From assembly GCA_022709505.1 (NCBI GenBank), contig JAKLIR010000001.1, forward strand, positions 1-37,064: a DNA stretch of 37,064 nucleotides. The letters run 5' to 3'. Source of the DNA: a bacterium. GTDB taxonomy: Bacteria > UBP15 > UBA6099. This document shows, piece after piece, positions 3,245 through 23,168 of the stretch. The notes below the pieces were generated by a model, which was not told the DNA's origin, ran no database searches, and worked only from the letters and a program-made list of their open reading frames with translations. The first letter of the stretch is position 1, and each line of letters begins with the position of its first letter. The translations under genes and the position numbers were made by a program.

Positions 3245-4152
3245 GTGATTCCCACTCCCTGAAGGATGGCCTGAAGTACGGAAAGTATTACTGCGGACAC
3301 GAGGGCGTTTCTGAATCTGGCGAACGTCAGGCTTGCGAGCAGAATTGAAATAAGTGAATACGTGATGAAGCCGCCCAACGCTTGAAAAAAGTTAACTTTG
3401 CCTATGAAATAGAAAAAGACGAACTGAGGCAGCGAGATAATTGATATTAGCGATAGCAGAATGAAAATATTGCCGAGTAGTCCGGGTCCCTTCGCCTGAA
3501 GGTTTTTCCATACGGTGAAAATAAAGATATATATCACGAGACTCATTGGGAATGTCGTGGAAATTTCAGAGGCGAATCTCCATATGTGAAATTCGAACTT
3601 CAGCCCGTAAGCGTTCATTCCGATTATTGTGTACACCGCTATTAGCGCCGAAGGAACGATCGCCACGAGAGCGTCTGTAATCAATTTGCTTTTTCTTACT
3701 CCAAGTTTCTCCATAACTTCGGGTTCCGTCCATGTCCAATAGAAAATCTGCCATGTGGCCAGCAACCAGTATGGGGTTTCAAGGGTATGGTTTCCATAAG
3801 TGACTATCAGATACGTTTCAAATATCACAACGGAAACAAATAGCAGGATAAGCTTTCGTGAGTCAAAATGGCCCGTGATATAAAACGCGCCCGGCAGAAG
3901 GATCAGAAAATATACGGAGTCGATAAGAATTCTCGCGCGGAACGAACCGAAATAATCCGTAACATTTAAGTATTGCAGCGTCGTGCATAAAATACCGCAG
4001 CAGAAGACGAACAAAAGGCTTTTTCGGAAAACGGGCTCGGACGTCAGTCTGACGCGAATCCGGCCCGCCGCAAGTTTTTCCACAAGATCGAGGCGTGAAA
4101 ACCATTCGCCGTCGGGAACAATATTTTTCGTCTGTTCATTCATAGCCTTCAC
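3241..4152 (-). CDS. cassette 1 gene C: polytopic integral membrane protein of unknown function
   Basis: 303 aa with about 8 hydrophobic helices. It is colinear with the paralog at 9079..9984. Shared motifs are YW[TM]W[TS][ED]P..M..[LM]G, YG[LF]KF, FPM, VW[KN][NR]L and F.[RK]FR.AL. It has ATGA overlaps at both ends. I recognise no catalytic motif. Confidence 0.8.
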   Translation of the reverse strand: MKAMNEQTKNIVPDGEWFSRLDLVEKLAAGRIRVRLTSEPVFRKSLLFVFCCGILCTTLQYLNVTDYFGSFRARILIDSVYFLILLPGAFYITGHFDSRKLILLFVSVVIFETYLIVTYGNHTLETPYWLLATWQIFYWTWTEPEVMEKLGVRKSKLITDALVAIVPSALIAVYTIIGMNAYGLKFEFHIWRFASEISTTFPMSLVIYIFIFTVWKNLQAKGPGLLGNIFILLSLISIISLPQFVFFYFIGKVNFFQALGGFITYSLISILLASLTFARFRNALVSAVILSVLQAILQGVGIT

Positions 4153-5000
4153 TTCAGAATCGGCATGGATTTAAGAAACAAATAATAAGCAAGATATGAA
4201 AACAGCACCATTCTTGTTGAACGGCAGAAGAAAAACGCCATTCCCGTCGGGAGTTGGGTGACTACGGCGACAGAGAAAATGCTTAACAGACCCATCAAAA
4301 TCTTTCCGGAACCAACGGCCGACGGGAACCACAAGACGAACATGAATAAGATGTTGATGACAATCAGAACCGAGGGTTCGTATCGCATACCCAGAAGACG
4401 TCTTGTCATGATACCGTAAGTGAATCCGAAAACGATGAAATAGTTAGCGATGCCGTTCATGAAAAAAATGAGATAGCCGCCCAAGGTAAGGGGTGTGAAC
4501 TTGAAGTGTCCTACTCTTGTCAGAAAATAATAAACTAAAGTAATGGTTAATGTTGAAAGGAGTATGGAGAAAAGGATTTCCATGGCGAAGTTTCTTTTTC
4601 CAGAGTAGCCCAAGCGAAAGAGAAAATCCCGCTCGTTGATCAGAAACATGTACAGGCAGAGCGCCGCCGGCATGAAGAAGAGCGCGAACCAAGCCGAGAG
4701 GCCGAGCAAAAGAGGGGCCTGTCCTGATGCGAAAAGTATGCAGAATCCGGCGAACCACGCCCAACTGCGTTTCGAGGCCCCGCCGAGCAGGAACAGACCC
4801 AATGGGTAAACGATTAGAATCGTTTTGATCATATTGCCGGTTTCTATCAGCACCGCATTGTGGAGTATATTCAGCAGAAAGGTGCAGAATGACATCGTGA
4901 CTATGATCAGCGCCGCTTTTCGAAACGAGTGGTCAGCAAACAAATTCATACGCTGCGAACCGGGATAGTAATCCGATGTGGTTCTGAAATAATATTTCAC
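4149..5000 (-). CDS. cassette 1 gene B: polytopic integral membrane protein of unknown function
   Basis: 283 aa with about 8-9 hydrophobic helices. It is colinear with the paralog at 10001..10855. Shared motifs are YF[RK]...[DN]YYPG.QR at the N-terminus, LGY[ST]G, RR[LF]L.MRYE, F.RSTR and YYLFL. It has ATGA overlaps at both ends. Confidence 0.8.
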   Translation of the reverse strand: MKYYFRTTSDYYPGSQRMNLFADHSFRKAALIIVTMSFCTFLLNILHNAVLIETGNMIKTILIVYPLGLFLLGGASKRSWAWFAGFCILFASGQAPLLLGLSAWFALFFMPAALCLYMFLINERDFLFRLGYSGKRNFAMEILFSILLSTLTITLVYYFLTRVGHFKFTPLTLGGYLIFFMNGIANYFIVFGFTYGIMTRRLLGMRYEPSVLIVINILFMFVLWFPSAVGSGKILMGLLSIFSVAVVTQLPTGMAFFFCRSTRMVLFSYLAYYLFLKSMPILK

Positions 5001-6502
5001 TTATCTAATCCCTTAAGCTCATAAAGTCCGCCGAGCGCGCCGTTCTCGCGGTCCGGGAGTTTCTCGAGCCGTATCATGGTTTTCGCGGTCTGCTCTGAAA
5101 GAATGATCTTCGTATTATATTCTTTAGTCAGTGATTCAATCTCCATGGCTTTTTCGACTTCCTCGCCGAGAATCGTGAACTCCCTCTTTCTTTCGTCTCC
5201 GATGTTGCCGATGAGCACATTACAAGTGTGAAGCCCGATCCCCGAGCGGAAAACGGGCCGTCCTTCTTCGATCCATTTTTCGCAGAGTTTTTCGAGTTTT
5301 TCGGACATGGCCGCCGCGGCGCGCGCCGCGTGTTCAGCGTGTTCGGCGTCGTGCGCCGGAGCCCCCCAATAGGCGACGATGCAGTCTCCTATAAACTTGT
5401 CCACGGTACCCTGATGTTCGAATATCACGTTTACTATTTCCGTAAAATATTCGTTGAGCTGCTCCAAAATCTGTTCCGGCGTCATTTTTTCCGAGATTCG
5501 CGTGAAATCACGGATGTCGGACACAAGAATAGTGACTTCCTGCCATCGTCCTTTCAGAAGGTCGGGGTTCTGAAGTATGTGCTCTGCCACGGATGAGGAG
5601 ACAAATCTTGAAAAAAGGTCCCGCATTTGCTCTTCGCGAAGTTTTTCGAATTCCTTGCTGCGCTCCTGCCTTATGTTGTGAATCACGGAGGCGGCTATCC
5701 CAGCCATCAGTTGCGAGACAGAGACATCATTGTCGGTGAACGACTCGCTCCTGTTACTCCCCGCGGCCGAGAGAGCGCCGTAAACAACGCCTCCGGATTC
5801 CACGGGCGTGATTATCATCGGTTTCGGAGGGATATCAGTGCCGGTCTTTTTCAACCTCGGGTCATCCGCCGCGCTATGAATGACAAGTGCGGACTTTTCC
5901 CTTGCGGACCATATCAGGGGATGATTCTCCGCAAGTTTCCATCCTGTTGTCACAGCACTGCGCCCGTTCGCGGCCGCGAATACGGGCCATTCGGCGGAGT
6001 CTCCGTCTGTCATCAGCAGCGTCGCCGCGATCTGAGCGTTGATCAGCGAAACAACCCCCTCCGCCAGCCGGAGCATCACGCCTTTCTCCTCCGTTTCGCC
6101 TGCGATGTTCATAACGATGTCGGAGATTGCAGATACGCTTTTCTGCGCCAGCCGACCGCGTCCGATTGTGTAGCCTATGAATATTCCAAAGAACAATATG
6201 AAAGCAATCATTACCGCGGCGCTGTAAAGACCGTATTCTTCACCAGCTATGGCCTTGTCCATCCGCAGCAAAGGCATGAACAGCAAGGCGCACAAGATTC
6301 CGCCTGTGATTCCGCCGGTCTGTCCGTAAGCTATCCCCAATTGATAAAGCGGTAAGAGTACCATGAAACGGTAGTATTGGTGAAACGGCAGATTATAAAG
6401 AGCTGTAACATATATAACAACGAAGCACACAACGATTTCCGTTAAAACAAATATCCAACGGCCACGGTCAGTGAGTTTGTTAAAGGATAATCTCTTGTTC
6501 AT
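4997..6502 (-). CDS. cassette 1 gene A: membrane-anchored GAF class III nucleotide cyclase homolog, C1-like variant
   Basis: 501 aa with N-terminal TM helices over residues ~15-115. The GAF-like block reads PMIITPVESGGVVYGAL...FTDNDVSVSQLMAGIAASVIHN. The cyclase domain reads VTILVSDIRDFT...VDKFIGDCIVAYWGAP...GIGLHTCNVLIGNIGD..EFTILGEEVEKAMEIES. Both metal Asp residues are present (D329, D373). The transition-state Asn and Arg positions are E450 and E454. Confidence 0.9.
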   Translation of the reverse strand: MNKRLSFNKLTDRGRWIFVLTEIVVCFVVIYVTALYNLPFHQYYRFMVLLPLYQLGIAYGQTGGITGGILCALLFMPLLRMDKAIAGEEYGLYSAAVMIAFILFFGIFIGYTIGRGRLAQKSVSAISDIVMNIAGETEEKGVMLRLAEGVVSLINAQIAATLLMTDGDSAEWPVFAAANGRSAVTTGWKLAENHPLIWSAREKSALVIHSAADDPRLKKTGTDIPPKPMIITPVESGGVVYGALSAAGSNRSESFTDNDVSVSQLMAGIAASVIHNIRQERSKEFEKLREEQMRDLFSRFVSSSVAEHILQNPDLLKGRWQEVTILVSDIRDFTRISEKMTPEQILEQLNEYFTEIVNVIFEHQGTVDKFIGDCIVAYWGAPAHDAEHAEHAARAAAAMSEKLEKLCEKWIEEGRPVFRSGIGLHTCNVLIGNIGDERKREFTILGEEVEKAMEIESLTKEYNTKIILSEQTAKTMIRLEKLPDRENGALGGLYELKGLDK

Positions 6503-7624: not shown

Positions 7625-9082
7625 TCAAAAAGATAGTTGATAAACGGTTATAGCTCCGGACTTTCCTTTTACGACTGCTTCGTGTTTTCGTTCGACTTTC
7701 ACGCTGTCTTTTACTCTTGCGAATGTCGGTTCCCCTATGAGAATGGGGATGCCCTTGGATGTGGAGAGAGTTTTTATGCGGGCCGCCGTGTTTACGGTGT
7801 CGCCGACGATCGTGTATTCCATGCGGCGGATGCTTCCGATGTTACCCGCGATAACCGCGCCGCTGTTGATCCCGATGCAGACGTTGAACGGTTGCATTCC
7901 GTCGCGTTCCCAGCGCGCATTGAGCATGTCGAGCTTACGATGAAGTTCTCGCGCGCAGGAGATGGCTTTTCGTTCGCTGTCGGGGTTTGCCAACGGCGCG
8001 CCCCAGAAAGCCATTATGTTGTCGCCTATGAATTTATCGAGAGTGCCGTCGTACTCGAAAATGGTGTCTATGGCGGTCGAGAAATATTCATTGAGCCTCG
8101 AAAGCAACTCTTCCGGAGGCAATGTCTTCAAGAGAGCGCTGAAGTTGGTGACCTCCGTGAACATGACGGTTACATCGCGGACTTCGCCTCCGAGGTCGAG
8201 TTTGTCCGGATTCTTGAGAATTTCCTCGGCAACCGTGTGAGACAGATAGGAAGAGAAGGTGTCTCGAATCCTGTTTCGCTGAATCTCATGCTGGATTCTG
8301 CCTCGAAGTTTTTCTCCGAGATCGAGAGCGTTTTCCACTGACTGTTTTATTGCGATGAGATATGGCAGTCTATCCTTTTCGAAGTAGTCGTCGGTGGAGT
8401 TTGCGATTGAGATGACACCTCGGGCGCGGTCGCCGTATTCGAGAGGGAAAACCGCAAGTCTGGAAACGCGTTCCTTTTGGTTCTCGGGGCCGTAGTAGGT
8501 CAAGCGTGAGTCCCGCGCCGTGTTCGTACTCGCCATGAACTCGCGCGTTTCGGCCACGGTATAGAAAATGTGCCCCTCCGGGAGCGGTTCGAGGTCTGGA
8601 TTCTTTCGAGGTCTGAGTTTTCCGTCTTCTCCGAACATGAAAGTCTCGACCTCATCCGATTTGCCTGCATCCGCGAAAAAGGCTTCAAGGGTCGAAAGAA
8701 GACTGTCTTCTTCAACGCTCCTGCGCATAGACTGTATCAGGTCGGTGGTTTGTTGCAGCGTAGCCGAGTTTTCCCTGCTTTTCCGAAGTATGTGCCCGAA
8801 CACCACGGAAAAGATGGACACTATTATCGCCACCAGCACAACTTCCACTCCGAACCCGAAGCCGCCGGCATATTGCATGGCGAACAGAGGCCCCTCCGCG
8901 AGCACGAGGATTATTGCGATGGATATGGCGCTTGTGCGGCGGTAGTTGACGCCCGCGTAAATGATGGGCGCCGCGATCAGCAGGCGCGTCCAGCCGACAA
9001 GATTCCAATTGTATTGATGAAATGCATATATAACCGCGAGCGAAGATATGCAAAGAAAAATGAGCGTAGCGATTTTCTTCAT
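7625..9082 (-). CDS. cassette 2 gene D: membrane-anchored GAF-like class III nucleotide cyclase, C2-like variant
   Basis: 485 aa, aligning without gaps to the 1787..3244 product. It has the same key residues: VTVMFTEVTNF (E310), DKFIGDNIMAFWGAP (K350, D354) and MEYTIVGDTVNTAARI (T424, N431, R435). It shares an ATGA overlap with the upstream gene at 9079-9082. Confidence 0.9.
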   Translation of the reverse strand: MKKIATLIFLCISSLAVIYAFHQYNWNLVGWTRLLIAAPIIYAGVNYRRTSAISIAIILVLAEGPLFAMQYAGGFGFGVEVVLVAIIVSIFSVVFGHILRKSRENSATLQQTTDLIQSMRRSVEEDSLLSTLEAFFADAGKSDEVETFMFGEDGKLRPRKNPDLEPLPEGHIFYTVAETREFMASTNTARDSRLTYYGPENQKERVSRLAVFPLEYGDRARGVISIANSTDDYFEKDRLPYLIAIKQSVENALDLGEKLRGRIQHEIQRNRIRDTFSSYLSHTVAEEILKNPDKLDLGGEVRDVTVMFTEVTNFSALLKTLPPEELLSRLNEYFSTAIDTIFEYDGTLDKFIGDNIMAFWGAPLANPDSERKAISCARELHRKLDMLNARWERDGMQPFNVCIGINSGAVIAGNIGSIRRMEYTIVGDTVNTAARIKTLSTSKGIPILIGEPTFARVKDSVKVERKHEAVVKGKSGAITVYQLSF

Positions 9083-9984
9083 ATAAGTCCGTAGATCAGA
9101 AGCAGATTGGACATCGCCGTGAACAGGCAGGCGGAAGGCAGAGCGCTCCTGAACTTTCTGAATGTGAGATGTGTGGTGAGGGCCATGATGCAGGTGATGG
9201 CCGCGAACCCTCCGAAAGACTGTGCCGGTGGTGTGGATGTCGCGATTCCCACGAGGAGGAAGACGGGCGCGTTCAACGCCGCCGACATTATTCCGAGAGC
9301 AAGAAGGATGCTGATGGGCGACAAACCCAGAGTTTTCAGCCTATTCCATACTATGTGAAAGAAACCGAAGATCGTGATGTACATGGGAAATACCTGCACT
9401 GTATTGAAAAAGACTCTCCAAGGCTCAAGCCTGAATTTGAACCCGTAGTTACTCACGCCCCATGCGAAGTAACCCGCGATTGTAACGGCGAGCAGCAGCC
9501 CCGTGAGCAAGTGAATGTGCATGTTTTTTTTAGCGAAGCCCATGTCTTTCATCATGCCGGGATCGGACCACATCCAGTAGATCGGAAGCCATAATCCCAG
9601 AACGATGATAAAGCCGGCGAGAACCGGCTTGTGGTAAAACACAGTGTTCCATGTTTGGAATAAGATTGTATTGCCGATCAGCATCAGAGAGTGCTTTTTG
9701 TCGAGTTTTCCCGCAATACGAAGCGCACTTCCGAACATGAGAACATAGTACACTCCGACGAGGACGTCCTTCTCTTCTACGCTAATGATTTTTCTTGAGT
9801 AGAGAATTGAGAGAATGCCTGTGATGATGCCTGCGACTGCTAAAACCGCGGATGCTTTTGTAATCAGATTTTGGCTGAAGATACCGTGGTTCGCCCATAC
9901 TTCACCGGAGGCTTCGAGCACGTGAATGGAAGATGCGGTGCGGGCCGCGCAGTGGATGTTTTCGTGATTTGCCGTCTCTTTCAT
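9079..9984 (-). CDS. cassette 2 gene C: polytopic integral membrane protein of unknown function
   Basis: 301 aa and a paralog of the 3241..4152 product, sharing the motifs listed there. A 16-nt spacer containing AGGA separates it from the upstream gene. Confidence 0.8.
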   Translation of the reverse strand: MKETANHENIHCAARTASSIHVLEASGEVWANHGIFSQNLITKASAVLAVAGIITGILSILYSRKIISVEEKDVLVGVYYVLMFGSALRIAGKLDKKHSLMLIGNTILFQTWNTVFYHKPVLAGFIIVLGLWLPIYWMWSDPGMMKDMGFAKKNMHIHLLTGLLLAVTIAGYFAWGVSNYGFKFRLEPWRVFFNTVQVFPMYITIFGFFHIVWNRLKTLGLSPISILLALGIMSAALNAPVFLLVGIATSTPPAQSFGGFAAITCIMALTTHLTFRKFRSALPSACLFTAMSNLLLIYGLI

Positions 9985-10000
9985 TTATTAGGACATCCTA

Positions 10001-10855
10001 TTAAAAGACTACGGTCTGAAGGAAAAGATAATAGATAACGTAGGCGGCAAGAAGGGGCCTTGTCGAACGGAAGAAATTGAAAGCCAGACCGAGTGAAGCT
10101 TGAGATGCGATGGCTTGAAGTACAGCGCCCGCTATCATGTAGTGGACCTTCATGTTGTGGCGGCCGATCAGCGATAGCATCCAATATACCGACATGATGG
10201 TTGTGTTAAGTGCGATAGGCGCCGTAACTTCATAACGCATGTCGAGAAAGCGCCGCATTAGCAGTCCCAGCAGTATGCCCCAGAATGGGAAGTAGTAAAG
10301 CGTGCATATAGATAAGTGCAAAAGATATTTTGTCACCGGAAGAACTTCAAAACCACTTTTTCTTATTAATACCTGACCAATCCATGTGTATGAGATAAGA
10401 ACGCCGGCTATCAAAATCGTGAAGACGATCTCGATAATGGGTTTTGAACTGCCTGTATAGCCGAGTTCGGCGAGCACATGCGGAGCGGTCCTGTTCGCCA
10501 TCGCGAGGCAGATCAGGGACACGGGAATGAGTGCAAGAAAGAAATACGAAGCGCCGAGGGTGACGGAAATGGTCGCGGCGGCGTAGAGAGCGGCGGCGGC
10601 GGCGTACCAGAGCCAACCTGAGGCGGGCATGCCCCCCGCGAGCGAAAATGAGGCGGGGATCATATATATAAGGAATAAAAGAATGAAGAATATATCTCTG
10701 TTAGGTCCGGGGGTGAATGAAACCGCTCCCACCACCTGCATCACTCCTAAAGGAATGAAAGTAATGAGGCATCGACGGAATAGCCTGTCTGACAGGATTC
10801 TGAATCTCTGTAAACCGGGGTAGTAGTTCTCATTCGATTTGAAATATATATTCAT
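10001..10855 (-). CDS. cassette 2 gene B: polytopic integral membrane protein of unknown function
   Basis: 284 aa and a paralog of the 4149..5000 product, sharing NYYPGLQR, LGYTG, RRFLDMRYE, FFRSTRP and YYLFL. It shares an ATGA overlap with the upstream gene at 10852-10855. Confidence 0.8.
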   Translation of the reverse strand: MNIYFKSNENYYPGLQRFRILSDRLFRRCLITFIPLGVMQVVGAVSFTPGPNRDIFFILLFLIYMIPASFSLAGGMPASGWLWYAAAAALYAAATISVTLGASYFFLALIPVSLICLAMANRTAPHVLAELGYTGSSKPIIEIVFTILIAGVLISYTWIGQVLIRKSGFEVLPVTKYLLHLSICTLYYFPFWGILLGLLMRRFLDMRYEVTAPIALNTTIMSVYWMLSLIGRHNMKVHYMIAGAVLQAIASQASLGLAFNFFRSTRPLLAAYVIYYLFLQTVVF

Positions 10856-12375
10856 GCATTCTCCGATATCGGCGTGAACAGCTTTCCGTATTCTTCGGGG
10901 GCGCCGGTAATGGAAGTCAGCCGGACGCCGGACGCGCGAGACGCGGTTTCGGACACTATTATCTTTGCGTCGAGATTTTTCGTCAGAGCCTCCAAGCTCA
11001 TTGCTTTTTCAACTTCCTCACCCATGATAGTGAACGCTTTCTTCCTTTCATCGCCGATGTTGCCCATGAGCACCCTGCATGTGTGGATTGCTATGCCTGT
11101 CGCATAGGCGGGCATTCCACGCTCGGCCCAAGAAACGTTGAGCGTTTCGAGCGCCCGGGCCATGGCGGCCGCAGCCTTTATCGCGTTCGCTGCATGCATG
11201 GGATCAGGCGCCGGCGCTCCCCAGTATGCAATGATGCAGTCGCCTATGAACTTGTCTATCGTTCCTTTGTTGTCAAAGACGACGTCCACCATAGCGGTGA
11301 AGTACTCGTTCAACTGCGTCACGAGCTCGTGAGCGGGGATTTTTTCGGACATGGCCGTGAAGCCCCTTATGTCCGACACGAGCAATGTTATCTCCTTCCA
11401 GTTCCCAGCGAGAAGGTCCGGATGTTCGAGGATGTAGTCCGCCACTGTGGAGGAAACGTATCGGGAGAACAATTCCCTCATTCGTTCCTCCCGCATTATT
11501 TCCTCCTGCCGGTTTTTTTCCTGCACCATATTGTGGATTGCGTCTCCGGATGTTTCCGCTATGGTTTTCGCGATCTCGAGGTCTTTTTCGGAAAAGTTTT
11601 CGCCGTTCTTTTTGTCGGTGAGGAGGATTGCGCCGTAAACGTCGTTCTCGTAAGAGACGGGTATGGACATGAATGATTTCAAATAATGCGCGGGAGCGTC
11701 GAGAGACAATCGGGAATCGTTTGCGGCGCTGTTTGTGGCGAGGGATGTGTTATTCCGGACGCTCCACAGCAGAACGTTATCTTGCGGAGGAGAGGAGTCG
11801 GGTATGTGTTTTTCATCGTCGTAAGGGCTTGTTATGCGCCAATCCGAGGAGCCATCCACACTGTGTCGCACGAGCGCCGCGCATCTCGTTGCCTCAGTGA
11901 GCGAGGCCGCCGCTTCGCATGAGCGAAGCATGACGGACCTTTCATCGGGCTCCGCGAATAACTCCATGAATATTCCGGATAGATCTTCGACATATCTGTG
12001 GGTTTTGCGCGCCTCGCCGACTGTGCCGCCAACTACCACGCCGAATAAAGTGTACAGAACAAGGAGTGCGATGGATGAATAACTGTCGAACTGAAACATT
12101 GCGTTCGGCGTCTGCACGGGAAGGATCGGCACGAAAAGAAAAAGGGACAGCAGGCTTAACATTATGCCGCCGCTATATCCGAACGCCGCGCCCGCCTGAT
12201 ACAGCGGGATCAGCAAGAAAAACCTAAGATGGTTGTGGTACGGCCACGCCATATAAAGAGAAACTATTATGATTATATAAATCAGTGCAAACTCGGCAAG
12301 AATAAAAGCCCATCTCGTTTTGTCAGAAATTCTTCGCTTTCCCTTTTTTGGGGTTTTCTTATTCACGCGCGTCAC
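10852..12375 (-). CDS. cassette 2 gene A: membrane-anchored GAF class III nucleotide cyclase homolog, C1-like variant
   Basis: 507 aa with a GTG start immediately after an in-frame stop. The GAF-like block reads SFMSIPVSYENDVYGAILLTDKKNGENFSEKDLEIAKTIAETSGDAIHN. The cyclase domain reads ITLLVSDIRGFT (D335), IDKFIGDCIIAYWGAP (K375, D379) and AFTIMGEEVEKAMSLEA. The Asn position is E456 and the Arg position is S460. Confidence 0.88.
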   Translation of the reverse strand: MTRVNKKTPKKGKRRISDKTRWAFILAEFALIYIIIIVSLYMAWPYHNHLRFFLLIPLYQAGAAFGYSGGIMLSLLSLFLFVPILPVQTPNAMFQFDSYSSIALLVLYTLFGVVVGGTVGEARKTHRYVEDLSGIFMELFAEPDERSVMLRSCEAAASLTEATRCAALVRHSVDGSSDWRITSPYDDEKHIPDSSPPQDNVLLWSVRNNTSLATNSAANDSRLSLDAPAHYLKSFMSIPVSYENDVYGAILLTDKKNGENFSEKDLEIAKTIAETSGDAIHNMVQEKNRQEEIMREERMRELFSRYVSSTVADYILEHPDLLAGNWKEITLLVSDIRGFTAMSEKIPAHELVTQLNEYFTAMVDVVFDNKGTIDKFIGDCIIAYWGAPAPDPMHAANAIKAAAAMARALETLNVSWAERGMPAYATGIAIHTCRVLMGNIGDERKKAFTIMGEEVEKAMSLEALTKNLDAKIIVSETASRASGVRLTSITGAPEEYGKLFTPISENA

Positions 12376-15744: not shown

Positions 15745-17448
15745 TTGGAGAAAAGAGTTAAAACGGCTGAGGAGCAAAGATTGACGGCAATGAATTTCGA
15801 GAAGATCCGGATTTCCCTCATAGCCGTTTTCTTTCTGGTGGCGATATTTCCACTTTCACTTCTTTCAAGAAAAATAGTCTTGCAAGGTGAGTATCTGATA
15901 AAGGAGAAGGCCTCTGCTCATTTGATAGATCTTGCGAAGGGAAATGTAAATGCCCTTGAAAGATTCATGAATGAGAGAATAAACGACATACAGGTCATGT
16001 CGAAGATGGTGTCCGCGCGTGGAAGCGACCGAGGATTCGTAATAAAGCAGTTGGAAAACATGAGGAAGCAGTATCGAATATATCCGGGTATCGTGCTATC
16101 TGACAGTGAAGGCCGTCCCCTGATAGGCACGAAAGGGTTGACGTCCGAAAGCATCTTGAGAGTTGAACGGTTTATCAAAAGAGGAGGCATCGTTTCAAGC
16201 GGCGTCGGCGACGTGGAAATGTTAAAGGTATCGGATGGAACAATCCCGGCCGTTATTATCTGTTCACGTCTCAAGGGGGCTGGCGGCGGTTACGATTATT
16301 TATGCGGGATCGTGGATTTCAGATATGTGAACAAAATACTTAAGGAGAGCGAAATCGGCGGTACGGGTGAAGTGTACATAGTTAACAAGGTCGGGTATTT
16401 TTTAACGGCGTCGCGCTTTGGAGCGAGGATCCTGAAAGACAAATATTCGCTTTTCTTAGATGAAAGAGAGCCGGCGCCGGCGTCGGAAGTGACTGATTAC
16501 AGAGGGCATAAAGTTCTTCACACGCAAAGAAAGGTTGGAGATTATCCTTGGTATGTAATTGCGGAACAGGACAAGAGCGAGACGCTTGCGCAGATCGTAA
16601 GATTACGGAAAGAGACCTTGTTTTATGTTTTTCTGATAACGGTAGTTGTATTTGCGATGTCATACATTGTATCGATGTTGATTGTAAATACCTTGAAGTC
16701 AAAATACAGATATGAGAAGGAGCTTGAATTTCAGGTTATTCAGAAAGACAAGCTGGCGGCTCTGGGATTACTTTCCGCGGGGCTTGCACACGAACTGAAC
16801 ACGCCTCTTGCGAACGCTTTGCTTTATGTGCAGATCGCGCGTGAAGAGTTAAAAGAAAACGAGCATGAGTCTTTGGATGACAGGCTGTTGACGATAGAAG
16901 ACGAAGTGAAACATGGCGGTGAAGTGGTGAAAAACCTTCTGGGGTTTTCCCACAGTGCTCAAGATGGTAAAAAGAGTGCGAATGTCAACGACGTCATATC
17001 GAAGTTATTGTCGATAGCAGGCCCGCATTGCGAATCCAAAGGTTTGTTGATGCACGTGGACTGCGAGGAAGGCATTCCGAATGTGGCGGCCGAAAAGAGC
17101 ACGTTGCAGGAAATAATCACGAACATAGTGGTCAACGCGATAGACACCATGCAGTGCGGCGGAGACATAAGGATATCGACAAGATATATTCCGTCGATAG
17201 GGAAGATAAGGATTGATGTGTCCGATACAGGGCCCGGAATACCCAAGGATGCAATTAGCAGGATATTCGACCCGTTTTACACAACAAAGAAACCCGGAGA
17301 AGGGACGGGACTCGGATTGTTCATGTGCTATCAGATGGTGCGTAAACTCGGTGGAGATATAAAGGTGGTAAGCAAAAGCGAAGGAACGGAAAAGACGGGA
17401 ACGACTTTCACCGTTGAATTGCCCGCCGAAACGGAGCGAAGCTTGTAA
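15745..17448 (+). CDS. sensor histidine kinase with a Cache-like periplasmic domain
   Basis: The protein has two TM helices flanking an extracytoplasmic region of about 250 aa. That region ends in YPWYVIAEQDKSE, which is Cache-like. The H-box is LAHELNTPL, the N-box is NIVVNAIDTM, G1 is DTGPGI and G2 is GTGLGL. The ORF-track start at 15745 is TTG. The in-frame ATG at 15790 (MNFEKIRISL...) is the more likely start. Confidence 0.9.
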   Translation: MEKRVKTAEEQRLTAMNFEKIRISLIAVFFLVAIFPLSLLSRKIVLQGEYLIKEKASAHLIDLAKGNVNALERFMNERINDIQVMSKMVSARGSDRGFVIKQLENMRKQYRIYPGIVLSDSEGRPLIGTKGLTSESILRVERFIKRGGIVSSGVGDVEMLKVSDGTIPAVIICSRLKGAGGGYDYLCGIVDFRYVNKILKESEIGGTGEVYIVNKVGYFLTASRFGARILKDKYSLFLDEREPAPASEVTDYRGHKVLHTQRKVGDYPWYVIAEQDKSETLAQIVRLRKETLFYVFLITVVVFAMSYIVSMLIVNTLKSKYRYEKELEFQVIQKDKLAALGLLSAGLAHELNTPLANALLYVQIAREELKENEHESLDDRLLTIEDEVKHGGEVVKNLLGFSHSAQDGKKSANVNDVISKLLSIAGPHCESKGLLMHVDCEEGIPNVAAEKSTLQEIITNIVVNAIDTMQCGGDIRISTRYIPSIGKIRIDVSDTGPGIPKDAISRIFDPFYTTKKPGEGTGLGLFMCYQMVRKLGGDIKVVSKSEGTEKTGTTFTVELPAETERSL

Positions 17449-17460
17449 AAAGGTGACTCG

Positions 17461-18834
17461 ATGAACGGATATAAAATATTGGTTGTTGAAGACGACAAGA
17501 AAATGCGGGATGGTCTTTTCTATGTCATGACGAAGGAAGGATACGAGGTGGATGCGGTCGATTCCGGCGAGGCGGCCTTGGGACGAATAAAAAATCATGC
17601 TTACGACCTCGTCATCTCGGACATGAAACTTCCCGGTATCGACGGCATGGAAGTTCTCAAAGCGGTGAAGAATTATGACAAAGACATAAGCATAATAATA
17701 ATCACTGCGTACGGCTCCGTTTCCGCGGCCGTCTCATCCATGAAAGAAGGCGCCGATGATTATGTCTTGAAGCCGTTTGATATGGAAGAGTTGAAATTCG
17801 TAGTGAGGAAAGTTTTTGAGAAAAGGGAGTTGGTCACGAAAAATCTACTGTTGCAAAGCCAACTGGAAAAGAAATACAAGTTTGACAACATAATAGGATC
17901 AAGTGAGAGCATAGTTAAAGTATTCAAATTGATAAATCAGATTAACAACTCAAAGACGACGGTTTTAATTCAAGGAGAAACCGGAACGGGAAAGGAACTC
18001 GTTGCAAAAGCCATACACTTCAACAGCATACGGGCGTCAAAACCTTTCTTGCCGGTGAATTGCGCGGCGCTGAATGAAAACCTGCTTGCGAGCGAATTAT
18101 TCGGCCATGTGAAGGGGGCTTTTACAGGAGCGGTGAAGGACAAAAGGGGCATATTCGAGGTGGCGGAAGGAGGAACTGTTTTCCTCGATGAAATCGGCGA
18201 CATAGATACAGGGATGCAACAGGTCCTCCTGAGAGTCCTCGAGGATGGCGAGATACAACCCGTGGGCTCGACGGAAAGAAGAAAGACTTCAGTCCGGATA
18301 ATCGCTGCTACCAACAAAGACCTCGAACAAATGATAAAGGAAGAGCGTTTTCGGGAAGACCTCTATTTCAGACTAAATGTTATTACGATAAAGATGCCGT
18401 CTCTCAGAGAGCGAAAAGAGGATATCGGAATACTGGCGCGGCATTTTCTAAAGATCTATTCGAATGAGAACAATAAAAACATAACATCGATTTCTCCGGA
18501 AGTTTTGTATCTGTTGGAAGAATACATCTGGCCGGGGAACGTGCGAGAACTTGAAAATGTCATAGAGCGGGCAACATTACTTGAGACGACTAACGAGATA
18601 ACGCCTGAAAGCCTTCCACCGTCAATTATGGATTTTTTTCAGCCTAAAGGAGGCGCGGCCTGCGGTTCGGATGATGTTGTGACCTTGGAACAAGTGGGAC
18701 GCTGTCACATTTTGGATATATTGAAGGCGTCAGGCGGAAACAAGGCCAAGGCGGCGGAGATGCTCGGGATAAACCGGACTACCCTTTGGCGTATGATGAA
18801 ACGGCTTAATATTGCGATAGATGATCAAGTGTAA
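17461..18834 (+). CDS. sigma-54-dependent response regulator (NtrC family: REC-AAA+-Fis HTH)
   Basis: The REC domain has its acceptor Asp in DLVISDMKLPG. Walker A is GETGTGKE. An intact GAFTGA loop is present (VKGAFTGA). Walker B is VFLDEIG. The arginine-finger region is RFREDLYFRL. The C-terminal HTH is AAEMLGINRTTLWRMMKRL. Confidence 0.93.
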   Translation: MNGYKILVVEDDKKMRDGLFYVMTKEGYEVDAVDSGEAALGRIKNHAYDLVISDMKLPGIDGMEVLKAVKNYDKDISIIIITAYGSVSAAVSSMKEGADDYVLKPFDMEELKFVVRKVFEKRELVTKNLLLQSQLEKKYKFDNIIGSSESIVKVFKLINQINNSKTTVLIQGETGTGKELVAKAIHFNSIRASKPFLPVNCAALNENLLASELFGHVKGAFTGAVKDKRGIFEVAEGGTVFLDEIGDIDTGMQQVLLRVLEDGEIQPVGSTERRKTSVRIIAATNKDLEQMIKEERFREDLYFRLNVITIKMPSLRERKEDIGILARHFLKIYSNENNKNITSISPEVLYLLEEYIWPGNVRELENVIERATLLETTNEITPESLPPSIMDFFQPKGGAACGSDDVVTLEQVGRCHILDILKASGGNKAKAAEMLGINRTTLWRMMKRLNIAIDDQV

Positions 18835-18850
18835 ATATCACCTCAAATTT

Positions 18851-18886
18851 GTTGCATAATGCAACTCGCGTGTTGCATTATGCAAC
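18851..18886. promoter_or_regulatory. two tandem 15-bp palindromes, a likely enhancer (UAS) for the adjacent sigma-54 activator
   Basis: GTTGCATAATGCAAC lies at 18851-18865 and GTTGCATTATGCAAC at 18872-18886. Their centres are 21 bp apart, two helical turns. They lie about 80-110 bp upstream of the -24/-12 promoter at 18960. As RNA the two copies could also pair with each other and act as a terminator for the upstream operon. Confidence 0.65.
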
Positions 18887-18959: not shown

Positions 18960-18974
18960 TGGCACGGAATTTGC
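18960..18974 (+). promoter_or_regulatory. sigma-54 promoter (-24/-12)
   Basis: TGGCAC-GGAAT-TTGC matches the TGGCAC-N5-TTGC consensus exactly. It sits downstream of the palindromes and about 95 nt upstream of the ATG at 19070, which has a strong ribosome-binding site. Confidence 0.8.
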
Positions 18975-19069
18975 CTCTTATGTTCGGTGCCGTGTCGAGT
19001 CGCAAAACTCATTCGACACAGATTCGCGCGACTGGTCTATTCAGCGCAAATAACAAAGGGAGGGTTCTT

Positions 19070-19559: not shown

Positions 19560-20720
19560 ATGATAATCGGTGTTCCAAAAGAGATCATGCCTCAGGAAAA
19601 CAGAATTGCGGTGCTTCCCGAAAATATCGCCAAGTATAAGGCCATGGGATTCAACGTGGTGGTTGAAACCAATGCCGGCGCCGGGGTCTATCAATTTGAC
19701 GAGGATTATGAAAAAGCGGGCGCTAAGATCGCGGAGGACGCTCGCGCCGTCTATGAAACAGCAGACATTATTCTGAAAGTGAAGGAGCCTATGCTCGATG
19801 ATAAAACCGGCGCCCATGAAATATACATGTTACGGAACAAGCAGTTCTTAGTGACGTTCCTGCATCCGGCGGCACCGTCGAACCACGGCATGATAAGGAA
19901 ACTAAGGGATAAAAATATAACCGCGTTCACCATGGACGGCATTCCGAGAATTTCGCGCGCGCAGAGGATGGACGCCCTAACCTCGATGAGCACTATAACC
20001 GGTTATAAAGCGGTGCTCATAGCCGCGAACCAGTTTTCAAGATTCATTCCGATGATAGGCGCTTCGATAGGGATGACGAAGCCCGCGAATATCCTTGTGA
20101 TCGGAACCGGCGTGGTGGGCTTGCAGGGCATAGCGACCGCAAAGAGAATGGGCGGTGCGGTGAAGGCGATCGACATAAGACCGGCCGCGAGGAAAGAGGC
20201 TGAATCGCTCGGCGTCAAGACGGTGGGGTTCGACATGCCTCCCGAAGTCGCCATGGGAGAAGGCGGATATGCAAAGGCTCTGTCATCCGAATGGCTCGAT
20301 AAGGAGCATGAGGCGATAAGACAGACCGTTGTGGAATCGGACATTGTGATTCTCAGCGCGCTCGTACCCGGCGAGGTGGCCCCCATACTGGTGACGGAAG
20401 ACATGGTTGAAAAAATGAAACCGGGGTCGGTCATTGTGGATGTCTCCATCGACCAAGGAGGCAACTGCGCCTTGACCGCGCCGGGAAGCATGACGACAGT
20501 ACACAACATCCACATCTGCGGAATCAAGAACATCCCGGGTTCAGTCCCCGTCCATTCCTCATGGATGTATGCGAACAATATGTTTTATTTCATCGAAAAT
20601 CTCTTCAAAGGCGGCCTTGGTGCATTTGACACGAGCGATGAGATTGTCTCTGGCACTCTTGTGACTCATGAGGGAAAAATATATCATCGCGGCGCTTTGA
20701 AAGCGATGGGAGTATCATAA
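19560..20720 (+). CDS. pntAA: NAD(P) transhydrogenase subunit alpha part 1 (dI, NAD(H)-binding domain)
   Basis: 386 aa. It begins MIIGVPKEIMPQENRIAVLPE, the AlaDH/PNT N-terminal block. The Rossmann motif is VIGTGVVGLQGIATAKRMGA. An AGGAG ribosome-binding site is present. Confidence 0.9.
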   Translation: MIIGVPKEIMPQENRIAVLPENIAKYKAMGFNVVVETNAGAGVYQFDEDYEKAGAKIAEDARAVYETADIILKVKEPMLDDKTGAHEIYMLRNKQFLVTFLHPAAPSNHGMIRKLRDKNITAFTMDGIPRISRAQRMDALTSMSTITGYKAVLIAANQFSRFIPMIGASIGMTKPANILVIGTGVVGLQGIATAKRMGGAVKAIDIRPAARKEAESLGVKTVGFDMPPEVAMGEGGYAKALSSEWLDKEHEAIRQTVVESDIVILSALVPGEVAPILVTEDMVEKMKPGSVIVDVSIDQGGNCALTAPGSMTTVHNIHICGIKNIPGSVPVHSSWMYANNMFYFIENLFKGGLGAFDTSDEIVSGTLVTHEGKIYHRGALKAMGVS

Positions 20721-20882: not shown

Positions 20883-21164
20883 ATGGCGAACATTCTTTTA
20901 CTCATAGGAGTGATGCTGTTTTCGTTTATCATTGGGTATATATTGATATCCCGCGTGCCGCAATTACTGCATACACCTCTTATGTCCATGACCAATGCAA
21001 TATCCGCAGTCACTATTCTCGGAGTGCTCATATTGTTCTCGAAAGACATTGAAGGTATCGAGAAATTACTCGCATGCGTCGCGCTCGCGACCGCCTCGTT
21101 CAACATAATCGGGGGGTTCGCGATAACGGACAGAATGCTGACTTATTTCAAAAAAAGTAAATGA
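20883..21164 (+). CDS. pntAB: NAD(P) transhydrogenase subunit alpha part 2 (membrane helices)
   Basis: 93 aa with three hydrophobic helices. It contains the characteristic HTPLMSMTNAISAVTILG block. An AAGGAG ribosome-binding site lies 11 nt upstream. Confidence 0.85.
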   Translation: MANILLLIGVMLFSFIIGYILISRVPQLLHTPLMSMTNAISAVTILGVLILFSKDIEGIEKLLACVALATASFNIIGGFAITDRMLTYFKKSK

Positions 21165-21176
21165 GGCAGTTTTGAC

Positions 21177-23168
21177 ATGGGACTGAACATTATACTTAAC
21201 AACTCGCTGATTGATTTTCTGATCATCTTCATTCTGATTTACGGTATATCGCGATTCCGCAATCCACCCGGCGCGAAGGTCGGCAACCGGACCGCCGCAT
21301 TTGCGCTGTTCAGCGCGGTCTTGCTCGTTATCGCAAGGCATGGAATACATGATCCGGTTGCCGTTGTCATTACACTCCTAATAGGTTCCGCGGCAGGATT
21401 GTATCTGGCGAAAACAGTGAACATGATACAAATACCGGCGATGGTCGCGTTCCAGCACGGAGCGGGCGGGGTGGCTGCTTTTCTGGTGTCTTTCGTGGAA
21501 CTGACATCCGTTGGCAAGACCCACGCTGCGATGAATGAGATTTCCGGGATACTCGGTCTTGTGATCGGAGCGGCCACTTTCAGCGGGAGTATGATCGCGA
21601 GCGGAAAACTCTCCAACAAGCTGAAACAGACACCGCAAAATATCCGCTTCCACTCTCATATCGCCTTAGCCGTCTTGATATCGATAATAGCGCTCGGCGC
21701 AATGTCGTTCCATCTGCCGCAGCAGCAGGATAAGATGATCTTCGTCTCCATGATAGTTCTTTCCGCCGCGTTCGGTGTGATCGTCTCGATCCGCATAGGC
21801 GGCGCCGACATGCCCGTACTGATATCATTTTTGAACGCCTCGGCCGGCCTTGCGGCGGCATTCTGCGGCATGATTATCGAAAACAAGCTTCTCATAGCGT
21901 GCGGGGCTACCGTGACAGCGTCCGGGTCCATCCTTACTCACGTGATGTGTAAAGCCATGAACCGCAAACTGATATGGATATTTATCCCGAGGAAAACTGT
22001 CACTGCGAAAAAAGCCCCGGGAGCTAAAAATGTCAGCACAGCCGTAACAGCGCCGCGGGCTGTTAAAGATGAGAGCAAAAGTCCTTCGGACCCAATCGCA
22101 ACGGCGGCTCGGTTGGCGCTCGAGGCGGATAATGTGATCATCATACCGGGATACGGAATGGCGATCGCTCAGGCTCAGAGTGAAGTCGCGGCATTTGCGA
22201 AGCTCATGTCCGAAATGAAAAAGAAAGTCAGGTTTGCGATTCATCCCGTGGCGGGAAGGATGCCGGGACACATGAATGTGCTGCTTGCGGAAGCGGAAGT
22301 AGAATATGAGATGTTGTTCGAAATGGACGATATTAATCAGGATTTCAAGCACACCGATCTGGTTTTGATTGTTGGCGCGTGCGACGTAGTCAATCCCTCA
22401 GCGATCAGCGTCGAGGGCACCCCTATCTCCGGCATGCCCATTCTTCGCGCGAATGACTCGAAAAATGTAATATGCTGCAACTTCGACACTAACCCCGGAT
22501 ACTCCGGCGTTCGGAACCTTCTCTATGAAATGGATAAAACGATTTTGCTTCTCGGTGATGCGAAGCAAACGGTCGGACGTTTGATAGAACGAGTGCGATC
22601 TGGCGTGGCGGAGACGATTCCCGAGGATGAAAAGAAACCAACATCGAACTATGAAAAAGCGGCGCAAACGCTGACGTCGGCAAAAAGCGTGATAATCGTT
22701 CCGGGGTACGGCATGGCGATCGCTCAGGCTCAGTTTAAGGTCGCCGAAATGGCGCGATTACTCGAAAAAAACAATACCGTTGTGAATTTCGCGGTACACC
22801 CGGTCGCGGGGAGGATGCCGGGCCACATGCATGTTCTTCTCGCGGAAGCTGAAGTGGACTATGAAAAGCTGAAAGAGATGGATGTGATCAACCCGATGTT
22901 TAAAGATGCGGATGTCGTTCTTGTCGTCGGGGCATGTGATGTGATCAATCCATCCGCCATCAGAATTGAAAACACGCCGATTTCGGGCATGCCGGTATTG
23001 TCTGTTATCGATGCGAAAAACATATTAATTTGCAACTATGACGAGAAGCCGGGATATTCCGGCGTGGACAATCCGCTGTACAGGGAACGGAAAACCACGT
23101 GTCTTTTCGGAGACGCCCGGGAGACAATCACGAAATTGATATCACTTTGCTCTGAAACTACGGCTTGA
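21177..23168 (+). CDS. pntB: NAD(P) transhydrogenase subunit beta with two tandem dIII (NADP(H)-binding) domains
   Basis: 663 aa. The N-terminal ~265 aa are multi-TM. Two consecutive dIII copies follow, each containing PGYGMAIAQAQ, HPVAGRMPGHM.VLLAEAEV, GACDV.NPSA, PISGMP and PGYSGV. Copy 1 starts near V320 (nt 22134) and copy 2 near V505 (nt 22689). Confidence 0.9.
   Translation: MGLNIILNNSLIDFLIIFILIYGISRFRNPPGAKVGNRTAAFALFSAVLLVIARHGIHDPVAVVITLLIGSAAGLYLAKTVNMIQIPAMVAFQHGAGGVAAFLVSFVELTSVGKTHAAMNEISGILGLVIGAATFSGSMIASGKLSNKLKQTPQNIRFHSHIALAVLISIIALGAMSFHLPQQQDKMIFVSMIVLSAAFGVIVSIRIGGADMPVLISFLNASAGLAAAFCGMIIENKLLIACGATVTASGSILTHVMCKAMNRKLIWIFIPRKTVTAKKAPGAKNVSTAVTAPRAVKDESKSPSDPIATAARLALEADNVIIIPGYGMAIAQAQSEVAAFAKLMSEMKKKVRFAIHPVAGRMPGHMNVLLAEAEVEYEMLFEMDDINQDFKHTDLVLIVGACDVVNPSAISVEGTPISGMPILRANDSKNVICCNFDTNPGYSGVRNLLYEMDKTILLLGDAKQTVGRLIERVRSGVAETIPEDEKKPTSNYEKAAQTLTSAKSVIIVPGYGMAIAQAQFKVAEMARLLEKNNTVVNFAVHPVAGRMPGHMHVLLAEAEVDYEKLKEMDVINPMFKDADVVLVVGACDVINPSAIRIENTPISGMPVLSVIDAKNILICNYDEKPGYSGVDNPLYRERKTTCLFGDARETITKLISLCSETTA

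Follow-up and report, generated by a model that had tools for sequence, protein, structure and literature searches.

The stretch of DNA analysed here (the window) comprises 37,064 nucleotides of contig JAKLIR010000001.1 in assembly GCA_022709505.1, from a bacterium of the lineage UBP15, and carries the transhydrogenase genes pntAA, pntAB and pntB, the last of which encodes a beta subunit with two tandem copies of the domain dIII. Reviews call a protomer of three domains (dI, dII and dIII) universal, and the mechanism of the enzyme is argued from two dIII that alternate between a face-down, proton-coupled state and a face-up state in which hydride is transferred (PMC5742237, PMC13635403). The usual three-domain protomer has a single C-terminal dIII per beta subunit, and window PntB has two. 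A transhydrogenase PntB as such is known; what is apparently undescribed is a range of one to four dIII copies together with an N-x-D sequence in loop E of the nucleotide site. No mention of tandem or multiple dIII, or of such a loop E, was found in the openly searchable literature, including transhydrogenase reviews and structural papers and proteogenomic studies of Desulfobacteraceae, a scope that leaves subscription journals outside.

The first-pass annotation of this DNA had proposed that the 663-residue beta subunit, longer than a typical PntB, contains two complete dIII copies in tandem, and both points hold. Solved PntB chains comprise 450-462 residues, and for this reason the extra length of window PntB corresponds to one additional dIII and a linker. 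The domain scan that had been proposed as a check returned two dIII matches: PF02233 (PNTB) covers residues 13-471 with 719.7 bits (gathering score 31.7) and the second dIII stretch in addition, and the dIII segments scanned singly score 240.1 bits (copy 1) and 239.1 bits (copy 2), both over profile positions 305-455. In a gapless self-alignment 99 of 160 residues are identical between the copies, in line with an earlier estimate of about 97 in 152. The repeat period of 185 residues is constant for all five motifs, each of which occurs exactly twice: PGYGMAIAQAQ at 324 and 509, HPVAGRMPGHM at 356 and 541, GACDV at 400 and 585, PISGMP at 416 and 601, and PGYSGV at 440 and 625. Four of these (PGYGMAIAQAQ, HPVAGRMPGHM, PISGMP and PGYSGV) had already been reported as kept in both copies. 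The linker SGVAETIPEDEKKPTSNYEKAAQTL between the copies starts at residue 475, and across 86 two-copy proteins the period has a median of 186 residues (range 177-204).

The same architecture is seen in an AlphaFold2 model built from a 77-sequence alignment, which contains no ligand and no oligomer and informs on domain folds and linker disorder only. Nine long membrane helices (from residues 3-28 to residues 237-260) are followed by an identical alpha/beta pattern twice, and the confidence score pLDDT falls below 50 only at residues 273-303 and 477-489. In a Foldseek comparison the model resembles E. coli PntB (9l76_A, template-modelling score TMt 0.80) and single dIII structures, the latter with root mean square deviations of 1.1-2.1 Å; about 165 residues of dIII copy 2 align with T. 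thermophilus dIII at 50% identity. Weak Pfam and NCBIfam matches to TPP_enzyme_M, acetolactate synthase and sirtuin families, together with Foldseek hits on thiamine diphosphate (ThDP) enzymes, were considered as signs of an extra domain and rejected because dIII shares a known fold with these proteins. Within dII, H94 aligns on E. coli beta-His91 (alignment to 9l76_C residues 60-104); across 77 two-dIII homologues its conservation is 90% or more. Beta-His91 is the only protonatable residue in the proton channel (PMC9529548), and by this alignment the membrane domain of window PntB keeps the channel histidine. The features of the locus are collected in Table 1.

Table 1 Features of the pnt locus in the window. 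Positions count from the first letter of the window, and residue numbers are those of PntB.
Feature	Window position	Strand	PntB residues	Basis or remark
Sensor histidine kinase (dCache, HisKA, HATPase_c)	15745..17448	+		Pfam
Sigma-54-dependent response regulator (receiver, AAA+ sigma-54 interaction domain, Fis-type helix-turn-helix)	17461..18834	+		PF00072, PF00158, PF02954
Two inverted repeats GTTGCAT-N-ATGCAAC, 21 nt apart	18851..18865 and 18872..18886			Read from sequence
Sigma-54-type -24/-12 element TGGCACGGAATTTGCC	18960..18975	+		One mismatch to TGGCAC-N5-TTGCW; upstream of HEAT-pntAA-pntAB-pntB
Small HEAT-repeat protein, 149 aa	19070..19519	+		Directly upstream of pntAA; PF13646 of homologues
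pntAA (alpha1, dI), 386 aa, soluble NAD(H)-binding subunit	19560..20720	+		PF05222, PF01262
pntAB (alpha2), 93 aa, part of dII with four transmembrane helices (4TM)	20883..21164	+		PF12769, 97 bits
pntB (dII and two dIII), 663 aa	21177..23168	+	1-663	Open reading frame (ORF), PF02233, AlphaFold2 match to 9l76_A
dII	21177..21992	+	1-272	Nine predicted long helices (AlphaFold2); H94 = channel His
Linker 1, tethers dIII-1 to dII	21993..22085	+	273-303	Predicted disordered, pLDDT <50
dIII copy 1	22086..22604	+	304-476	PF02233, 240.1 bits; AlphaFold2 alpha/beta pattern; neighbour-joining 'copy 1' clade
Copy 1 motif GYGMA			325-329	
Copy 1 motif HPVAGRMPGHM			356-366	
Copy 1 motif GACDVVNP			400-407	
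Copy 1 motif PISGMP			416-421	
Copy 1 loop E CNFDTNPGYSGV			434-445	
Copy 1 N-F-D codons in loop E	22476..22484	+	435-437	
Linker 2 (VAETIPEDEKKPT), tethers dIII-2 to dIII-1	22605..22643	+	477-489	Predicted disordered, pLDDT <50
dIII copy 2	22644..23165	+	490-663	PF02233, 239.1 bits; neighbour-joining 'copy 2' clade
Copy 2 motif GYGMA			510-514	
Copy 2 motif HPVAGRMPGHM			541-551	
Copy 2 motif GACDVINP			585-592	
Copy 2 motif PISGMP			601-606	
Copy 2 loop E CNYDEKPGYSGV			619-630	
Copy 2 N-Y-D codons in loop E	23031..23039	+	620-622	

Age, spread and conservation of the duplication

At the DNA level copies 1 and 2 are 62% identical, with 37.5% identity at third codon positions and the same base at 15 of 43 four-fold sites, and synonymous sites between them are near saturation. 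The duplication is therefore old, and the copies would have been unable to confuse an assembler. The longest run of DNA common to both copies is 21 nt, a length that is marginally unusual given the proteins and the codon usage (p ~0.025). This run had been spotted in the first-pass annotation and is indeed present in both copies, at positions 22158 and 22713 rather than at about 22149 and about 22711. Recent gene conversion between the window copies was also considered, and the modest p value of the 21-nt run together with the near-saturated synonymous sites leaves no good evidence for it.

How widespread is such a beta subunit? Window PntB was searched against 5.8 billion proteins, and dIII copies were counted by the HPVAGR motif in the best 120 matches by summed score. 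The search returned a long list of homologues sized 650-680 aa. Two dIII copies are present in 79 of the best 120, three in 28 and four in 13; more than four were found in none of these 120, and no search was aimed at such proteins. The two-dIII architecture recurs in more than 100 independent assemblies. In a scan of one genome per GTDB species it was found in records titled complete genomes (Desulfosarcina variabilis str. Montpellier and D. widdelii PP31) and in many metagenome-assembled genomes (MAGs) of Desulfotignum, Desulfobacula, Desulfatitalea, Desulfobacter and others. At 74% identity, the closest relative comes from a MAG binned as Victivallales, and databases hold hundreds of such genes, named plainly 'NAD(P)(+) transhydrogenase subunit beta'. 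A survey of PntB lengths and domain counts in relatives had been suggested at the outset, and its outcome is that the window gene is not a one-off but belongs to a large family whose members have between one and four dIII copies.

Two apparently stand-alone soluble proteins made of dIII repeats (P0039, 526 aa, and P0041, 710 aa) were rejected as a further form of the family. P0041 is a frameshifted full-length gene: on its contig (L081, 5057-8133) a dII ORF lies directly upstream in another frame, and homology crosses the junction inside a GC-rich homopolymer Ala/Pro linker. P0041 is really a four-dIII PntB, and the four-repeat soluble protein is a gene-calling artefact. The same frameshift artefact probably accounts for P0039, which has three dIII repeats, judging from its start MIVVPGYGMAQ, identical to that of P0041. 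As a separate observation on the Desulfosarcina genes, the coding sequence of dII and dIII-1 is identical between the pntB of D. variabilis (L007) and that of D. widdelii (L011), and dIII-2 differs (synonymous divergence dS 0.11). This pattern points to very closely related strains that bear different names, or else to an exchange that recently affected part of pntB.

The history of the copies was approached with a neighbour-joining tree of 405 dIII domains. Window copy 1 lies in a clade of 106 copy-1 domains that also takes in copies 1 and 2 of seven three-copy proteins of the Desulforhopalus/Desulfopila type, and window copy 2 lies in a separate clade of 107 copy-2 domains together with copy 3 of the same seven proteins. 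Because copy 1 and copy 2 fall in separate clades, the window duplication is ancient and common to its relatives. Identity between copies is 60-70% in the window's group and 90-100% in others (for example P0003, P0005, P0083 and P0092), and at 58 nodes of the tree, one of them deep and many shallow, the same protein is represented in both child clades. Either copy number would have changed repeatedly, with other lineages reaching two, three or four copies independently, or tandem copies would have been homogenised by conversion in some lineages, two histories that a neighbour-joining tree cannot tell apart.

Copy 1 and copy 2 have mean column entropies of 0.76 and 0.78, respectively, across 106 proteins that share the window's duplication type. 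The positions that are invariant in both copies are GYGMA, HPVAGRMPGHM.VLLAE, GACDV.NP.A, P.SGMP.L, CN.D..PGYSGV.N..Y and G.A. Functional divergence of copy 1 from copy 2 was considered and rejected, since no position in these 106 proteins is fixed differently between the copies at the 90% level. Copy-specific preferences are seen at position 422, where 100% of copy 1 domains have Cys and 71% of copy 2 domains have Val, at position 338 (K in copy 1, A in copy 2) and at position 363 (G in copy 1, E in copy 2), and helix A is less conserved in copy 1 than in copy 2. The ratio of nonsynonymous to synonymous substitution rates (dN/dS) is 0.04-0.16 alike for dII, dIII-1 and dIII-2 in eight informative pairs of close relatives. 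At the level of sequence, copies 1 and 2 of dIII are both complete, and strong purifying selection has maintained each of them since the old duplication. The first-pass judgement that neither copy looks decayed thus stands, as nucleotide-site positions are invariant in both copies across the 106 homologues. It had also allowed for one copy being a degenerate spacer without binding-site residues; all conserved positions are kept in both.

A changed nucleotide site

The core of the dIII nucleotide site is present in both window copies as GYG (Y315), HPVAGR (R350), GA.D (D392), loop D with P.xGMP, and loop E with GY.GV.N. The first-pass annotation had read GACDV in both copies, as found here, and had named GANDV.NP as the usual motif. 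This is right for canonical enzymes: GAND is present in E. coli, in T. thermophilus and, wherever the motif was located, in the KRS-type representatives. GACDVVN also occurs in single-dIII relatives from Planctomycetota, Dehalococcoidia, Syntrophales, Bacteroidales and other groups, and GACD is therefore a clade trait unrelated to the duplication. A second change had been missed. At the position of the KRS motif in loop E (K424-R425-S426 in E. coli), copy 1 has NFD and copy 2 has NYD, and KRS is lost throughout the clade, in proteins with one dIII and with several.

All 294 dIII domains of the multi-copy proteins have Asn at position 424 and a hydrophobic residue (F, L or Y) at position 425, and 293 of them have Asp at position 426; single-copy relatives carry the same N-x-D changes. 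A search with dII only, of 1.84 billion representative proteins, was used to place the N-x-D and KRS types relative to each other. The nearest dII relatives are all N-x-D and have one to four dIII, and KRS/KRG enzymes appear only at about 40% dII identity or below. The two types differ at positions 424, 425, 426, 428 (small to K/R), 439 (F to Y), 404, 423 and 324, and the N-x-D signature fully discriminates 45 N-x-D from 24 KRS representatives. The clade gains a basic residue at 428, which is K or R in 36 of the 45 N-x-D representatives and Asn in window copy 1. We define the N-x-D clade by C-N-[LFYM]-D-x-x-P-G-Y-[SA]-G-V with Tyr at E. coli 439 and usually GACD or GASD, a signature that both window copies fit. 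The multi-dIII proteins seen, in a sample built around the window's relatives, are all of the N-x-D type. Measured from the MNR motif to PGYG, the tether has a median of 60 aa in the N-x-D clade and 47 aa in the KRS type, and is thus about 13 residues longer; the longer tether between dII and dIII is also observed in single-dIII members of the clade.

In E. coli the KRS motif lies within loop E and belongs to the NADPH site, and loop E helps to select NADP over NAD (PMC9529548). Arg425 contacts NADP+. For the N-x-D clade, the label 'NADP(H)-binding' for dIII would accordingly be an assumption.

Stoichiometry, mechanism and alternatives

The first-pass annotation had argued that fusing two dIII to one membrane domain alters the stoichiometry of the enzyme, and the gene content bears this out. 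In the window operon pntAA is the only dI gene, pntAA and pntAB are each present once in every one of 80 related loci, and pntAB adjoins pntB in 79 of the 80. With one pntAA and one pntAB per two-dIII pntB, the encoded dI:dII:dIII ratio is 1:1:2. No second dI gene to match the second dIII was found in the 80 loci; a weak extra dI match in one of them (L008, 37% over 143 aa) was set aside as probably an alanine-dehydrogenase-type paralogue. Window PntAA scores 346.6 bits against NF006942, below the cut-off of 383, and keeps the NAD-type signature AIDIR, the Asp of which we take to be the NAD-type aspartate after the second strand of the dI fold.

Several known systems provide points of comparison. 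The window genes share with the three-polypeptide PntAA/PntAB/PntB enzyme of T. thermophilus a soluble dI (PF05222, PF01262), a 4TM alpha2 subunit (PF12769) and a beta subunit that joins dII to dIII; the Rhodospirillum rubrum transhydrogenase is also of the three-polypeptide type. Window dII and dIII align with this type over their full length at 33-50% identity, and the model matches 4o9u_D with TMt 0.84. The window differs from it in having two dIII, N-[FY]-D rather than KRG/KRS in loop E, GACD rather than GAND and a dII-dIII tether about 13 residues longer, and T. thermophilus has Asn where the window has the channel His. E. coli PntAB (9l76; 2bru), which has been studied most thoroughly, has the histidine (beta-H91, equivalent to window H94), and its GYGMA, HPVAGR.PGHMNVLLAE, D392, loop D and G430-Y431 are conserved in both window copies. 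In contrast to the window, E. coli dI is fused to transmembrane helices 1-4, dIII is single and loop E has KRS; window PntB also stays below the cut-off, given below, of the NCBIfam equivalog that is modelled on this type. In protozoan beta-alpha single-chain enzymes and in engineered single-subunit E. coli enzymes, the C-terminus of dIII runs through a flexible linker into a further globular domain and activity is retained (PMC13635403), although that domain is dI, not a second dIII, and these enzymes are of the KRS type. P0261 in the representative set is a natural dIII-linker-dI example.

A further likeness is by analogy. In the tandem lipoyl domains of 2-oxoacid dehydrogenase E2 and the tandem acyl carrier proteins of polyunsaturated fatty acid synthases, a mobile carrier shuttles between fixed stations. 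As in those swinging-arm enzymes, the copy number of dIII varies by lineage (from one to four), repeats within a protein are often near-identical, and the copies are joined by flexible Ala/Pro/charged linkers, such as APATPATTPAAADTPQS in P0003. The analogy differs in that there is no homology, that the nucleotide of dIII is dissociable and not covalent, and that docking is coupled to proton translocation.

How could a beta subunit with two dIII work? Structural studies of the canonical enzyme indicate that the dI dimer binds one dIII tightly, that a second face-up dIII would clash, and that isolated dIII grips NADP(H) extremely tightly (PMC5742237). They also indicate that dIII alternates between attachment face-down on dII and a detached state, and that face-down dIII plugs the proton channel in the apo E. 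coli enzyme (PMC13635403). With moderate confidence, we favour the hypothesis that the window encodes a functional proton-translocating transhydrogenase (EC 7.1.1.1; alpha1, alpha2, beta) whose tethered dIII modules take turns at docking. Each dIII would dock by turns face-down on dII and face-up on the dI dimer, with one face-up dIII at once. Because the dI dimer accommodates one face-up dIII at a time, the extra dIII would act as an additional competent swinging carrier that takes its turn at the same docking sites. More dIII could then mean higher occupancy of these sites and higher throughput, as with multiple lipoyl or acyl-carrier domains. The enzyme would still be an NADH/NADP(H) transhydrogenase, which is presumed because dI retains the NAD-type aspartate, and dIII would have to recognise the 2'-phosphate end differently, as N-[LFY]-D stands in place of KRS. 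The catalytic competence of both copies, their alternation and any effect on rate are what we infer from sequence comparisons.

Several points weigh against the hypothesis of dIII modules that dock by turns. The tight energy coupling of the canonical mechanism gains no obvious benefit from an extra dIII. KRS, which is part of the E. coli NADPH site (PMC9529548), is gone from both copies, and NADP(H) binding is thus assumed. Against NF006974, the equivalog for the Re/Si-specific NAD(P)+ transhydrogenase subunit beta, window PntB scores 522.3 bits and does not reach the cut-off of 689. None of the PntB and dIII structures compared has an N-x-D loop E, no characterised member of the clade was found in the searchable literature, and the AlphaFold2 model is silent on the packing of four dIII per dimer. 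Moreover, some distant two-dIII lineages have one plainly degenerate copy, so that extra copies are not always catalytic. In P0173 this is copy 2, with HPYAGRILGH, a loop D without GMP and NLAEDTGWAEV in loop E, and in P0155 the altered copy is copy 1. By alignment, decay of this kind is absent from the window copies.

An alternative hypothesis, which we regard as unlikely, is that one dIII is catalytic and the other serves as a regulatory or structural module, be it a nucleotide sensor, a plug at the cytoplasmic mouth of the channel or a throttling competitor. Since face-down dIII plugs the channel of the apo E. coli enzyme, a second domain could act as a gate, and the copy-specific preferences at 422, 338 and 363, the lower conservation of helix A in copy 1 and the degenerate copies of P0173 and P0155 all agree with such a division. 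However, the nucleotide-site residues are invariant in both copies with no position fixed differently at 90% or more, dN/dS is equal for copy 1 and copy 2, and lineages with three or four near-identical copies fit dosage better than a dedicated regulator.

A second alternative, to which we assign a rather small probability, is that the clade is not a classical NADH/NADP(H) transhydrogenase and that its dIII may bind NAD(H), another dinucleotide, or NADP(H) weakly, with multiple dIII as an adaptation to that other chemistry; this does not exclude the docking of dIII by turns. Acidic residues at a 2'-phosphate site usually select against NADP. Such a residue is part of the N-x-D sequence that is present in essentially all multi-copy dIII and in their single-copy relatives and that fully discriminates them from KRS-type representatives, and the motif thereby replaced, which includes the Arg that contacts NADP+, lies in a loop that aids the choice of NADP over NAD. 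Against this alternative, dI is of the NAD type, and an NAD(H)-binding dIII would leave the reaction without a driving force. The rest of the site is invariant as well (the equivalents of Y315, R350, D392, loop D, G430-Y431 and N436), and the K or R at 428 could replace K424/R425, although window copy 1 has Asn there.

The quaternary structure might also have changed, such that one alpha2-beta unit with two dIII serves one dI dimer and mimics the pair of the canonical dimer. Because dI is a separate soluble polypeptide that forms dimers binding one dIII tightly, two dIII per beta subunit could form an alternating pair within one chain. We consider this very improbable, as the three- and four-copy forms clash with a fixed 2:1 design and solved dII is dimeric, with window dII aligning to those structures over its full length. 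Lastly, the general risk of repeats in metagenome assemblies could suggest a misjoined or collapsed repeat that made a false second dIII, and this can be dismissed: the pntB reading frame is intact, the copies are too divergent and their longest common run too short, and orthologous copies 1 and 2 recur in the independent assemblies and the two records titled complete genomes described above, so the duplication is genuine and a misjoin is effectively ruled out.

Returning to dIII modules that take turns, a bolder version, which we hold to be doubtful, is that in a lineage of anaerobes dIII has turned into a multi-copy swinging hydride carrier (one to four copies) with a rebuilt 2'-phosphate pocket (N-[LFY]-D and K/R at 428). 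If the rebuilt pocket loosened the tight grip of an undocked dIII or shifted its specificity, copies that are not docked could swap their nucleotide while another one occupies the docking site, and the dIII copy number would then tune turnover. The binding-change cycle would have been solved otherwise than in the E. coli, Thermus and mitochondrial enzymes, possibly with a different nucleotide preference for a whole branch annotated as PntB.

A selectively maintained family with two to four dIII per membrane domain and one dI gene constitutes a natural experiment on the two-dIII model of the mechanism. It could show how many dIII are served by one channel and one dI dimer, whether they take turns and whether turnover scales with copy number, and its presence in named organisms with complete genome records (Desulfosarcina) makes it experimentally accessible. 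In addition, with KRS lost, many of the 'NAD(P) transhydrogenase' genes of sulfate reducers, Planctomycetota, Dehalococcoidia, Syntrophales and Bacillota may depart from the nucleotide specificity or affinity that is assumed for them, and nucleotide specificity matters for metabolic models of NADPH supply in anaerobes.

Operon, regulation and neighbouring genes

The pnt genes are preceded by a gene for a small HEAT-repeat protein (Table 1). The 149-residue window protein itself gave no Pfam or NCBIfam match; its homologues are 145-163 aa long, some match PF13646 and one is named 'HEAT repeat protein'. The gene occupies the same position in about 45 of the 80 related loci, which come from several phyla and include both single- and double-dIII types, and its product may be an accessory protein or a regulator that partners PntAB in this clade. 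For this gene a 200-aa ORF from 18917 is listed, with a start that is probably too far upstream.

Upstream of the HEAT gene lies a sigma-54-type -24/-12 element. The number of such elements in the window as a whole is not above chance; an equivalent element precedes the HEAT gene in 23 of 68 related loci and is confined to loci with this gene. Two palindromes are located about 75-110 nt upstream of the element, in the intergenic region that separates the sigma-54 response regulator gene from the HEAT-pnt genes. This distance is typical of enhancer sites, and the palindromes are candidate binding sites for the adjacent sigma-54 activator. Homologues of the response regulator (56-83% identity) are encoded upstream of the pnt genes in many related loci, and the histidine kinase gene that adjoins it likely encodes its partner. 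The kinase is syntenic in the closest locus (L018, 62% identity), as is the entire six-gene block. From this arrangement, the pnt operon is probably sigma-54-dependent.

Elsewhere in the window, two tandem copies of a four-gene module lie on the minus strand, at 1787-6502 and 7625-12375. The Pfam scan covered the first, and the second was recognised by its matching ORF sizes and order. The module comprises an adenylate/guanylate cyclase of about 485 aa, two proteins of about 302 and 283 aa without a Pfam match and a protein of about 500 aa, which in the first copy (4997-6502) carries GAF and cyclase domains.

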